Shown here: positions 2,292 to 4,220 of the stretch, piece by piece
Layout: the number at the start of each line of letters is the position of its first letter
Numbering within the stretch: position 1 is the first letter of the stretch
Origin: a phage
Sequence record: PZ049726.1
Length of the DNA stretch: 6,125 nucleotides
Direction: 5' to 3' (one strand)
Made by a program: the position numbers and the translations under genes
Notes under the pieces: generated by a model
The model's database searches: none
Seen by the model: only the letters and a program-made list of their open reading frames with translations
What the model was told of the DNA's origin: nothing

Positions 2292-2393
2292 AAATCCTCC
2301 ATACGTTTTTTAGTTGTAACGACAACATAGATTAAGCTTAATTTGTTCTTTAACGCCTACAATAGAAGCTAAAAAGGCGCATAAAAAAAGAAC

Positions 2394-2522
2394 TTATAAA
2401 AAGTCCTTACCGTATTCTTTAAACCATTTATCTAGTTTTGCATTACTTTCACCATCTATCCAATTTCTAAGTTCCTCGCCTATTTGGTCGAGTTCTTTTT
2501 CAAGCACTGGTATAGTAGTACA
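2394..2522 (-). pseudogene. relic 3' fragment of a Mu F-like head morphogenesis gene (42 codons plus stop, no start codon)
   Basis: Minus-strand translation CTTIPVLEKELDQIGEELRNWIDGESNAKLDKWFKEYGKDFL* aligns without gaps to the -1-frame tail of the upstream Mu F-like gene (CTTIPVLEKNLDEIGQELKDWVNGKQSPKLDSWFEKYGKYFI*). By hand count that is 26/42 identical residues and about 65% nucleotide identity, with differences concentrated at third codon positions. There is no start codon or RBS of its own. Confidence 0.5.
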
Positions 2523-2532
2523 TATAATAAAA

Positions 2533-2550
2533 GCACCTAATTAAAGGTGC
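2533..2550 (-). terminator. hairpin with downstream U-rich tract, candidate intrinsic terminator of the HNH cassette
   Basis: Perfect inverted repeat GCACCT / AGGTGC (6-bp stem, 6-nt loop). On the minus-strand transcript it is followed by UUUUAUUA. The HNH stop codon (2541-2543) lies in the loop. Confidence 0.35.
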
Positions 2551-3224
2551 ATATCCGATAAATATTTATAAAATTGTTTTCTAGTTGTTTTTTCACCTTT
2601 ATATTTGTTGTGAAATTTATTATGACAACTTACACAAAGAGTTACTCCATTGTCTAAATCTAATCTTAAATCTTTATGAGTATCATAGCTATCCAGATGG
2701 TGTGCCACTAAATTGTATCCATCATCTTTGGTTTTACCACATATCTTGCAAGTATAATCATCTCTTTCTCTAACACTTTTACTCCAAGACTTATATCCAA
2801 ATATTCCACGATTTTCAATTCTATGATTTTCGGATATATTGTTATCATATCTTCCATTGTTTTTACCACTATTAGCTTTAGATATTTTCCTTTTATACTC
2901 TTTCGTCTGCATTACTTTTCTAAGATTATCCCTGCTTTCAGTAGAGTTTAAATAAGTATTGGCTATGTTTTTAGAATTATTTACAAATGCTTCTCTGTCG
3001 GATTTATCTGTATTCTTCCACCAATTATCAAAAGCTTCTTTTCTGCTTCTTGTATTAATTCCTAATTTTCTTAATTGTCTTGATAAATTTCCACTATCAC
3101 AATTAAGTTCTTTAGATATCATAGGTATTGACATTTCTTCATCAATGTAAAGTTTTTTTAATACCTCCGAATATTCCATTCCATATCTTTCTTCAACTTC
3201 GATCATTCTCTTAGATTTTCTCAC
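2541..3224 (-). CDS. HNH family homing endonuclease with N-terminal helix-turn-helix-like region
   Basis: C-terminal HNH motif is directly visible: CKICG ... AHH ... DNG ... CVSCHNKFH (Cys-x2-Cys, His-His, Asn, Cys-x2-Cys-His-x3-His). Preferred start is GTG at 3222-3224, with AGGAGG (3231-3236) 6 nt upstream, giving 227 aa. The ORF-track start at 3263 is also GTG but lies upstream of the predicted -10 box. An in-frame ATG at 3204-3206 is an alternative. Confidence 0.8.
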   Translation of the reverse strand: MRKSKRMIEVEERYGMEYSEVLKKLYIDEEMSIPMISKELNCDSGNLSRQLRKLGINTRSRKEAFDNWWKNTDKSDREAFVNNSKNIANTYLNSTESRDNLRKVMQTKEYKRKISKANSGKNNGRYDNNISENHRIENRGIFGYKSWSKSVRERDDYTCKICGKTKDDGYNLVAHHLDSYDTHKDLRLDLDNGVTLCVSCHNKFHNKYKGEKTTRKQFYKYLSDMHL

Positions 3225-3251
3225 AACAAACCTCCTAATGTTTATACTATA

Positions 3252-3280
3252 ATTATAGTACACAATCCATTAGGATTCAA
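3252..3280 (-). promoter_or_regulatory. sigma-70 / SigA-like promoter for the HNH gene
   Basis: Minus strand reads TTGAAT (3275-3280), a 17-nt spacer, then TATAAT (3252-3257). It starts 3 nt after the -1-frame Mu F stop and lies about 16 nt upstream of the AGGAGG RBS. Confidence 0.45.
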
Positions 3281-3282
3281 GT

Positions 3283-3438
3283 TTAAATAAAGTATTTCCC
3301 ATACTTTTCAAACCAACTATCAAGCTTCGGACTTTGCTTTCCATTAACCCAGTCTTTCAATTCTTGCCCAATTTCATCAAGATTCTTTTCTAGTACGGGT
3401 ATTGTAGTGCAAAGTCCATTCGGGTGTCCAACGGCAAA
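3283..3438 (-). other. C-terminal coding segment of the Mu F-like gene lying in the -1 frame relative to ORF 3390-4220
   Basis: The -1 frame is open for 52 codons (FAVGHPNGLCTTIPVLEKNLDEIGQELKDWVNGKQSPKLDSWFEKYGKYFI*), ending at TAA 3283-3285. It contains an HPN-x-x-C-T motif resembling the HPNCRC-type C-terminus I recall for Mu F / SPP1 gp7 proteins, and its last 42 codons are homologous to the relic at 2394-2522. Confidence 0.55.
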
Positions 3439-4220
3439 TTATTAACTGAATAAACAACTCCATTCCTACTCCTACTCATACACAATTCACAAGTTCTATG
3501 ACTACCTGAAGTAAGCCATTTAATTCCAGCAACAAACGGATTTCTTTGGCAACTTCTCTTCTGTGCTTGTTGAAAAGTATGATTTATTGCAGTACGGGCA
3601 AGTCTTTGAGCGTTATAATCAACTTGGGTAGAAGCTTTACGATATGTAGTCCTCCATTTCAAAGACTTTCTAGCACTAGGATTCAAATACACTTCCAAGT
3701 CCTTAGCAATTTCATACATAGACTTCTTTTCTGCAATTCCTTGAGCTAGAATATAGTCAATATCCTTTTCAAACTTCTTAGTGCATGCCCATATTCTTTT
3801 GCTTAAGCCTAATCTATCTTTGTAAAGCTTCCCAGACATTATTTCATTAACTGCAGCTTGAGGAACTTTAGCAAACATATCTATAAAGGTATCAGCTAAA
3901 TCTAAGCTAAAGGATTTTTTTATATCGAAGAGCATATTTAGTTGAGTTTCGTTGGCTATATTAGCAATCTCTATTAAATCCTTACTTAGTCTCTTATCAA
4001 TAGAATTAGAGAAAGTTGAAATATCTGTTTGTAAGGATTTTAATACACTTCTTACATATCTTTCGGATAAACTATCCTTTGATACTTTTGAAAGCTTCTT
4101 AGATGTATTTAAGTACATTTGCTTATATATATCTTTTATTTCTCTTTGAAGCTTCTTTGTTAGATGTATCTTTTTCTTATTAGCTTCTAGGCATAACTTT
4201 TCGTATTCTGATTTATTCAT
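3390..4220 (-). CDS. phage head morphogenesis protein, Mu F / SPP1 gp7-like (apparently frameshifted near the 3' end)
   Basis: 276-aa ORF immediately downstream of portal. The segment KWLTSGSHRTCELCMSRSRNGVVYSVNNLP fits the W-x-T ... R ... G-x-V pattern of the Mu F family. The expected following motif is found in the -1 frame, so the intact gene probably ran from 4220 to 3283. No strong Shine-Dalgarno; the start follows the upstream stop by 2 nt. Confidence 0.7.
   Translation of the reverse strand: MNKSEYEKLCLEANKKKIHLTKKLQREIKDIYKQMYLNTSKKLSKVSKDSLSERYVRSVLKSLQTDISTFSNSIDKRLSKDLIEIANIANETQLNMLFDIKKSFSLDLADTFIDMFAKVPQAAVNEIMSGKLYKDRLGLSKRIWACTKKFEKDIDYILAQGIAEKKSMYEIAKDLEVYLNPSARKSLKWRTTYRKASTQVDYNAQRLARTAINHTFQQAQKRSCQRNPFVAGIKWLTSGSHRTCELCMSRSRNGVVYSVNNLPLDTRMDFALQYPY

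Follow-up and report, generated by a model that had tools for sequence, protein, structure and literature searches.

In phage T4, endonuclease genes have been described in which a promoter just upstream of the open reading frame (ORF) gives a translatable RNA, and in which a hairpin over the ribosome-binding site (RBS) forms only on transcripts from upstream (PMC2988022). Prophage 'morons' are defined by a promoter and a terminator of their own (PMC3594210). The insert that breaks the ORF of T4 gene 60 protects against nicking by the adjacent MobA; ribosomes bypass it from one codon to a matching one, the take-off codon being followed by a stop (bioRxiv 10.1101/2022.08.31.505936). 'Stop-hops', in which matched codons flank a stop, have been seen in synthetic constructs; no natural cases were known to a 2016 review (PMC5009743). 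In fungal mitochondria, C-terminal duplicates of atp6 and cob occur beside endonuclease ORFs, downstream of the functional gene (PMC6279837). The locus described here resembles several of these systems in part. It consists of an HNH endonuclease gene and the sequence directly ahead of it, downstream of a Mu F-like head-morphogenesis gene, in the phage sequence record PZ049726.1; 'the window' denotes the whole stretch of 6,125 nucleotides (nt) that was analysed.

Positions 3280-3222 (minus strand) are interpreted, with a probability of about 0.72, as the expression module of a free-standing HNH homing-endonuclease cassette, comprising a host sigma-A-type promoter, a Shine-Dalgarno (SD) sequence and a GTG start. 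The comparisons below support a self-contained mobile cassette in which a conserved promoter, apparently made from a relic of the target gene, would be coupled to an RBS-masking hairpin and a terminator.

Candidate promoter, leader hairpin and terminator of the HNH gene

The HNH gene and the sequence ahead of it contain the following features.

3285-3283, minus strand: stop codon TAA of the Mu F-like tail
3280-3275, minus strand: -35 hexamer TTGAAT, 4/6 matches to TTGACA
Between the -35 and -10 hexamers, minus strand: promoter spacer CCTAATGGATTGTGTAC, 17 nt
3257-3252, minus strand: -10 hexamer TATAAT, 17 nt past the -35, with a transcription start expected near 3245
3236-3231, minus strand: Shine-Dalgarno sequence AGGAGG
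3224-3222, minus strand: GTG start, 6 nt after AGGAGG and in frame with the HNH ORF ending at 2541
3227..3285, minus strand: hairpin predicted on read-through RNA, with the 5' arm at 3285-3280, 3275-3268 and 3262-3255 and the 3' arm at 3250-3243, 3240-3233 and 3232-3227
2541..3224, minus strand: HNH endonuclease gene with GTG start, 227 amino acids (aa) (Pfam HNH 1.9e-8, NUMOD3 2e-4; PHROG HNH endonuclease 7e-22)
2525..2550, minus strand: terminator-like hairpin GCACCT-TTAATT-AGGTGC (2550-2533) followed by TTTTATTA, with the HNH stop codon in the loop

The initial annotation had proposed the order TTGAAT, 17-nt spacer, TATAAT, AGGAGG and GTG, and every element was found at its proposed place on the minus strand. 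The site has the hexamers of a sigma-A-type promoter (-35 and -10 boxes 16-18 nt apart, or a -10 box with TGn) and scores 10/12 in a promoter scan. It is the only one on both strands that combines a -35 of at least 4/6 matches, a spacer of 16-18 nt and a perfect TATAAT. The motif by itself is nevertheless weak evidence, because about one equally good site (~1.0) per strand is expected in DNA of 32% GC, and promoter-like matches are not enriched in the window (18 found, compared with 27 +/- 4.6 in shuffles). The chance of such a site within a given 62-nt gap is 0.005. The weight rests on the position of the site and on its conservation in relatives.

Homologs of the HNH protein were found at 38-77% identity, and ten non-redundant cassette lineages spanning this range were compared in an alignment anchored on TATAAT, where the evidence is the presence of the box at the homologous place and not an identity figure. 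TATAAT occurs at the homologous position, beside a relic of Mu F coding sequence, in all ten lineages. The non-coding DNA flanking the box has a mean pairwise identity of 40-49%. In eight of the lineages the box lies 33-43 nt ahead of the start codon; its distance is thus workable in eight, and its position is conserved above the neutral level in ten. The -35 and the TGn element vary in a complementary manner. The four lineages without TGn have the -35 sequences TTGAAT, TTGAAT, TTGTAT and TTTATA, and TGnTATAAT is present in six lineages whose -35 has no more than 3/6 matches at 17-nt spacing. Such coordinated variation is what a working sigma-A promoter predicts, and is not expected of a mere relic. 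The promoter element is absent from the HNH-less relatives L020, L001 and L023. These observations are in keeping with the earlier suggestion that the gene has a promoter of its own.

The cassette has a consistent setting. The genomic context was examined for homologs of at least 38% identity from 12 lineages. In each of them the gene directly follows Mu F, and the phages concerned have three different capsid families. A scan of IMG/VR with the HNH protein gave no match, and the relic/promoter pattern CCTAATGGANTNTGNNNTATAAT, scanned across IMG/VR and GTDB genomes, gave chance matches in unrelated taxa only. A metagenome scan with the HNH alignment recovered one known lineage (L042-L044), one new lineage (L045) and otherwise only distant HNH domains.

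The RNA from 30 nt upstream of TATAAT through the start codon was folded. In the predicted structure the relic sequence UCCUAAUG pairs with CAUUAGGA, covering the SD region CAUUAGGAGG. The hairpin in the window has a free energy of -18.1 kcal/mol (z -3.76), which 1 of 200 dinucleotide shuffles matched. RNA begun at ~3245, ~7 nt past the -10, is predicted to be essentially unstructured (-1.9 kcal/mol) and to have an unpaired SD. All eight short-leader lineages have an equivalent hairpin (-13 to -25 kcal/mol, z -2.9 to -5.9), in each case with the SD paired. Pair types vary at fixed positions among these eight lineages, e.g. from U-A to C-G at -18; the comparison consists of per-sequence folds with shuffles, and is less rigorous on covariation than alignment-based folding. 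Computationally, the arrangement is that of T4-type RBS sequestration, with the SD in a stable hairpin and the promoter inside the hairpin. The spacer segment CCTAATGGA is unchanged in 6 of the 10 lineages. This conservation exceeds what a promoter needs, and would be explained by the predicted pairing of the spacer with the SD region.

The HNH protein contains an N-terminal helix-turn-helix-like region, a NUMOD3 motif and a C-terminal HNH domain with a Cys4 zinc site, and matches the HNH protein of PDB 5H0M (2.4e-5). The catalytic H, N and H residues and the four cysteines are invariant in 14 homologs, so the catalytic motif is intact. Homologs start with ATG at the codon that matches the GTG of the window, and gene callers give the same 227-aa product. 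The residue identity between the window protein (P0001) and that of L005 (P0002) is 77% overall, and the C-terminal third (residues ~152-227) is identical. This suggests recombination within the endonuclease gene. The terminator, the native Mu F tail further downstream and the intergenic DNA to ~2300 also differ by only a few bases between the window and L005.

The hairpin at 2550-2525 is the sole terminator call in the window (-8.6 to -9.9 kcal/mol), and a stem-loop with a U-run directly after the gene is the form of an intrinsic terminator. A scripted search found a hairpin and T-run overlapping or following the HNH stop in 9 of the 10 lineages, with differing sequences and energies of -8 to -15 kcal/mol. 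Together with the hairpin that would hide the SD only on RNA started upstream, this agrees with the proposal of the initial annotation that HNH expression is uncoupled from late read-through. The presence of a promoter and a terminator around extra DNA that relatives lack is as in a moron. The base composition is not distinct, with a GC content of 0.28-0.30 in the cassette and 0.30-0.36 around it.

Insertion in the Mu F gene and the duplicated gene end

The limits of the cassette are defined by L020, the locus of P0023, which has an intact 310-aa Mu F protein and no HNH gene. In an alignment with sliding identity, L020 and the window are 95-99% identical through portal and Mu F body until ~3435, and from ATGTACTAC (window position 2523) onward a single base differs. 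The inserted DNA therefore corresponds to 3435-2524 (~0.9 kb), with its right junction at 2524/2523. It displaces only ~24 nt (codons P-L-D-H-P-N-G-K) of an L020-like gene. Both junctions fall within the PLDHPNGxC codons, the insertion lying inside the motif PLDHPNGxC|TT; the uninterrupted site in L020 is AATAATTTACCACTAGATCATCCGAATGGGAAATGTACTACTATACC. Presence and absence at one locus among near-identical genomes is characteristic of homing endonuclease genes, and the foreign nature claimed earlier for the cassette is borne out by this comparison. Intact Mu F proteins of 310-311 aa are the norm, with more than 100 among the matches listed. P0023 (Paraclostridium bifermentans) is the closest among the matches listed; the Mu F body of the window is 88% identical to it, and its C-terminus is exactly the peptide encoded by the downstream tail in the window.

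The inserted DNA holds a copy of the Mu F site (copy A), a replacement tail (tail 1) and a degenerate site copy (relic B) that overlaps the promoter; the SD, the HNH gene and the terminator also belong to it. The parts derived from Mu F are as follows.

3390..4220, minus strand: Mu F-like (SPP1 gp7 family) head-morphogenesis body ORF, from the ORF list, with a weak Pfam Phage_Mu_F match
3395..3435, minus strand: copy A, the interrupted Mu F 'PLDHPNGxCTTIPV' site (GCCGTTGGACACCCGAATGG...), from frame translations and the L020 alignment
3283..3438, minus strand: tail 1, open -1 frame 'FAVGHPNGLCTTIPVLEKNLDEIGQELKDWVNGKQSPKLDSWFEKYGKYFI*', the cassette-borne replacement Mu F C-terminus
3242..3283, minus strand: relic B, a degenerate third copy of the Mu F site (..LNPNGLCTIIIV*), which supplies the -35 and the spacer
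2522-2394, minus strand: tail 2, the native Mu F 3' end 'CTTIPVLEKELDQIGEELRNWIDGESNAKLDKWFKEYGKDFL' (CTTIPVLEKELDQ...KDFL), now an untranslated relic

The Mu F body ORF is in the wrong frame after '...NNLPLD' and stops at 3392-3390. Copy A is one base shorter than the intact gene, so that tail 1 (FAVGHPNGLCTTIPVLEK...KYFI*) continues to 3283 in the -1 frame relative to the body. The initial annotation had placed a Mu F tail just upstream of the promoter. Its stop codon is indeed there, but the tail is out of frame with the body ORF and is itself part of the inserted DNA. Tails 1 and 2 (3411-3283 and 2522-2394) form a diverged in-register direct repeat of ~129 homologous nt that flanks the HNH gene, and the differences between them keep a related protein sequence. 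The native copy is the downstream one, which differs by one base from the tail of the intact L020 gene.

A repeat search matched relic B, CCTAATGGATTGTGTACTATAAT (3274-3252), to CCGAATGGACTTTGCACTACAAT (3423-3401) in copy A at 78%; it reads PNGLCTII. The relic is the uninterrupted version of the site without its right half, and possibly also supplies the -10. It is present in all cassette lineages, and in L008 it reaches further upstream into the NNLPVG codons. In copy A the homolog of the relic within the real promoter is itself a promoter-like match, TGGACA-18-TACAAT (3430-3401, minus strand, 10/12). This was rejected as a promoter, as it is not kept as such in other lineages. The derivation of the promoter from Mu F coding sequence, the extent of the cassette beyond the HNH gene and the native tail downstream of it had all escaped the initial annotation, whose three inferences otherwise hold as far as can be judged from sequence.

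L019 has an independent downstream relic, with a junction no more than 3 nt from that of the window. In the HNH-less loci L001 (4780-4935) and L023 (3283-3440), copy A and tail 1 run directly into the end of tail 2, with the junction at TATGG|TAAGGAC. These two may have come from a window-like ancestor by deletion between the tails, or by 'hit-and-run' conversion without HNH. The composite of copy A, tail 1 and relic B could have arisen if the Mu F 3' end was duplicated in tandem and the second of the two copies came to hold the endonuclease gene.

The broken Mu F site and the surrounding operon

Of the 10 HNH-positive lineages that could be assessed, 9 have an interrupted Mu F ORF, always at one position inside DHP|NG. 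Several alleles in the relatives have a stop codon between two proline codons (CCT TGA CCT; CCG TAA CCT; CCG TGA CCA/CCG/CCT). Others are CCG-TAGTGAAG-CCA (CCG TAG TGA AG CCA) and CCC TAA C with the tail in the +1 frame. The relatives that bear these alleles are L006 (2783-2842), L012 (2279-2338), L015, L018, L040, L041, L131 (and five sister loci), L008 and L005. In the window one C is lost (GAC[C]AC, inside PLD|HPNG, 3438-3390, minus strand), which puts the tail in the -1 frame; this allele shows no evident slippery site. The 50-codon tail after the frameshift stays open and conserved. The same -1 allele occurs in L001, L023 and L019, the last with a much diverged Mu F body, and a read error was rejected for this reason.

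Among 80 HNH-less loci from IMG/VR, none of which has the HNH gene within 2 kb, 63 have an intact site, 6 have CCG TGA CCG (one lineage), 1 has the -1 allele and 10 were not resolved. Interruption of the site thus goes with the HNH cassette, yet persists in phages without HNH too. A pattern scan of IMG/VR for more stop alleles recovered only the L131 lineage. In the tails of the interrupted lineages, synonymous sites are saturated and the ratio of nonsynonymous to synonymous substitution rates (dN/dS) is mostly 0.1-0.4, rising to ~0.75 in a few pairs; for the window and L019 it is 0.09. Since the tails are open and have low dN/dS, they appear to be under selection at the protein level. Recombination with intact genes could contribute to the low values. 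Such selection gives indirect support to a single polypeptide across the gap.

With the exception of the window type, all alleles could be restored to ...DHPNG... by re-pairing of peptidyl-tRNA(Pro) (+6, +11 or +1). The matched take-off and landing codons of a bypass, with a stop after the take-off codon, are found in the relatives and are lacking in the window, and none of the gaps at the Mu F site had recognisable bypass signals. Translation of the tail from an internal start was rejected, as neither a start codon nor an SD recurs consistently among the alleles. Stop-codon reassignment was rejected because TAA, TGA and TAG are all present at the site, in addition to frameshifts. A +11 Pro-to-Pro hop in the window was likewise rejected; it would remove an invariant Leu-Asp-His, and there is no stop after the take-off codon.

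It is tentatively suggested that the cassette carries a broken version of its own target for self-immunity, that Mu F is still made as one protein by a peptidyl-tRNA(Pro) hop, and that relic B serves as an operator; this combination is possible, although doubtful as a whole. The breaks would then be Pro-stop-Pro (+6), CCG-8 nt-CCA (+11), CCC-UAA (+1) or the 1-nt deletion of the window. For the relatives, target immunity plus a translational hop is a live hypothesis; it offers no mechanism for the -1 allele of the window. A hop at CCG TAA CCT would give the peptide ...LPLDHPNGLCTTIPV..., and readthrough would give ...DHPXPNG.... Should hopping indeed decode the Pro-stop-Pro sites, 'stop-hops' would for the first time be known from nature, and the system would resemble T4 gene 60 and MobA in miniature, in a Gram-positive setting.

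The genes of the window are all on the minus strand, in the order portal, 60-aa ORF, Mu F-like, HNH, 93-aa ORF, gp49/66-like ORF, scaffold and major capsid. The remaining features are listed here.

5811-4405, minus strand: portal
2408-2381, minus strand: native end-of-Mu F hairpin and U-run with the stop codon in the loop; weak, z only -1.2 in the window alone
2387-2347, minus strand: second intergenic hairpin, GCGCCU-16 nt-AGGCGU followed by AAAGAAC, without an Rfam match

The intergenic block 2347..2408 is common to HNH-positive and HNH-less relatives. With its stop codon in a terminator-like loop, the cassette seems to reproduce the punctuation that it displaced. The stem of the second hairpin shows compensatory changes by eye (GCGCCT/AGGCGT, CGTCT/AGACG, CATCT/AGATG, GCCT/AGGC) and could be a regulatory element of the late operon. 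An Rfam search of the window gave no match.

Two small ORFs lie at 2291-1744 (minus strand) between Mu F/HNH and the scaffold gene, one of 93 aa without a family match and one of 88 aa in the Phage_gp49_66 family. The same slot is empty in L001, contains one 102-aa ORF in L020 and L006, and has a gp49-like ORF alone in L005; it is a variable accessory slot. A second mosaic spot is found at ~4411-4211, across the 60-aa ORF between portal and Mu F, where identity to close relatives falls to 50-70%. An additional 119-aa ORF occupies this gap in L020. The prophage of Paraclostridium sp. AKS46 (L023), which has no Mu F-associated HNH gene, carries a distinct endonuclease gene of the HNH_3 family (L023:159-785, 208 aa) between terminase and portal. 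The phage itself is a temperate siphovirus-type prophage, probably of Paraclostridium, to judge by its closest relatives. Megablast of the whole window against phage records gave a sole match, Terrisporobacter phage TVCOM_ph1, which covers the capsid and scaffold genes and is not informative on the HNH region.

Proposed mechanism, alternatives and relation to known systems

In the proposed mechanism, host RNA polymerase would start near 3245 and give a transcript with a free SD that ends at the hairpin and T-run of 2550-2525. The cassette would thereby behave like a prophage moron, transcribed independently of the late genes. On late read-through RNA, the promoter-spacer stretch would pair with the SD region, and HNH would be poorly translated. 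The enzyme would cut related phages whose Mu F gene is intact, at the PLDHPNGxC codons or close to them, and repair from the donor would copy in the cassette together with the replacement tail. This cut site is proposed because both insertion junctions fall in these codons and because the site is broken in nine of the ten HNH-positive lineages and intact in most of the HNH-less loci (63/80).

Several observations weigh against this interpretation. An equally good promoter site is expected about once per strand by chance, and several lineages have a poor -35. An exception to the pattern is L038, in which the relic reads TATAGA and Mu F is intact. The leaders of L040 and L045 are ~115-125 nt long. 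As TATAAT lies at the top of a conserved hairpin, RNA structure could explain part of its conservation. The terminator is modest, with a stem of 6 bp, and the scaffold and capsid genes lie beyond it, so that late transcription has somehow to get past. No hairpin and T-run was found by script in L006, where a candidate stem and T-run are seen by eye only. The cleavage specificity given above is the most likely one, and is deduced from the junctions only.

One alternative is that the promoter is a chance motif in AT-rich intergenic DNA and that HNH is transcribed only within the late operon. The unenriched promoter-like matches (18 compared with 27 +/- 4.6) and the expected frequency of such sites are consistent with this, and read-through is certain, since no terminator separates the Mu F tail from the HNH gene. 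However, a gene expressed by read-through only would be nearly untranslatable with its SD buried, and a chance motif would not account for a TATAAT at the homologous place in ten diverged lineages, within non-coding DNA that is only 40-49% identical, or for the complementary -35 and TGn. With the probability of 0.005 for the gap in question, this explanation has only a small chance of being correct. Somewhat better, but still unlikely, is the possibility that the conserved block acts mainly at the RNA level, as a hairpin that represses translation or as a site for processing or stability of the late transcript, and that TATAAT is kept as structure and not as a -10. The hairpin is strong and conserved and shows changes of pair type, TATAAT falls in its apical part, and the spacer segment is over-conserved for a promoter spacer in a way that pairing with the SD region accounts for. 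However, apical loops normally vary, yet this one retains TATAAT in every lineage while the stems compensate; TGn is found exactly where the -35 is poor; and a hairpin that solely blocked the SD would leave the gene without a route of expression. The T4 precedent, moreover, combines promoter and hairpin.

An operator is compatible with the promoter. In this case relic B would mimic a homing half-site, and the HNH protein would repress its own promoter, as I-TevI does. The I-TevI operator is 15/20 identical to its homing site and overlaps its promoter (PMC2988022); relic B, likewise a homing-site-like sequence, lies between the -35 and the -10. It is homologous to the Mu F site that bears the insertion junctions, in its uninterrupted form, and the wobble bases of its CCT AAT GGA are kept in six of ten lineages and vary in the coding copies. 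Pairing with the SD explains the same conservation, and these facts do not separate the two readings of relic B. An I-TevI-like operator is conceivable, but on balance improbable. The least probable of the alternatives is that the promoter serves the phage, its main role being to restart transcription past the insertion for the scaffold and capsid genes. In T4, endonuclease insertions do contain or adjoin promoters for essential genes downstream (PMC2988022), and the cassette lies within the late operon. However, a hairpin and T-run follow the HNH stop in all but one of the ten lineages, and HNH-less relatives have no such promoter at the same boundary.

An expression module of the HNH cassette itself remains the preferred interpretation. 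The promoter is ordinary in kind, and the arrangement is already known in kind from phage T4. What would be new is that T4-style silencing of a selfish nuclease on host transcripts, together with a promoter of its own, recurs in unrelated temperate phages of Gram-positive bacteria, and that the target gene itself has supplied, as a relic, the material of the control module. A natural series on how homing cassettes may enter essential genes without killing them is also provided by the locus: the site is known empty, occupied in at least ten variants, and in the cassette-type form without the HNH gene.

The closest parallels to the control region are the T4 endonuclease genes with promoters of their own. 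In both cases a promoter adjoins the endonuclease ORF inside a longer transcription unit, an RBS hairpin forms (here by prediction) only on transcripts from upstream, and a homing-site-like sequence lies over the promoter. The T4 genes of this type are intron-encoded and have T4 middle or late promoters, whereas the gene in the window is free-standing, in a temperate siphovirus-type prophage, with a predicted promoter of host sigma-A type. The free-standing seg and mob genes of T4 likewise lie between or in conserved phage genes, are variably present and have their target in a neighbouring gene. However, seven of the T4 free-standing genes are described as cassettes without a promoter that depend on upstream ones, in contrast to the candidate promoter and terminator of the window cassette. 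As in prophage morons (e.g. HK97 gene 15), extra DNA with its own promoter and terminator is found between late genes and is absent from close relatives. Unlike in morons, the cargo is a selfish nuclease and not a gene of benefit to the host, the insertion replaces the 3' end of a gene, and the GC content is unremarkable.

The two remaining systems resemble the insertion itself. As with T4 gene 60 and MobA, the endonuclease gene travels with a short ORF-breaking insertion in an adjacent conserved target, seen as Pro-stop-Pro in relatives of the window. The gaps in Mu F are 1, 6 or 11 nt, compared with 50 nt in gene 60, and in the window 1 nt is deleted. Among known systems, the duplicated 3' end is best matched by the fungal atp6 and cob insertions, since tails 1 and 2 similarly flank the HNH gene. 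Those insertions carry LAGLIDADG and GIY-YIG endonucleases and belong to another genetic system; the phage cassette adds a putative promoter and terminator.

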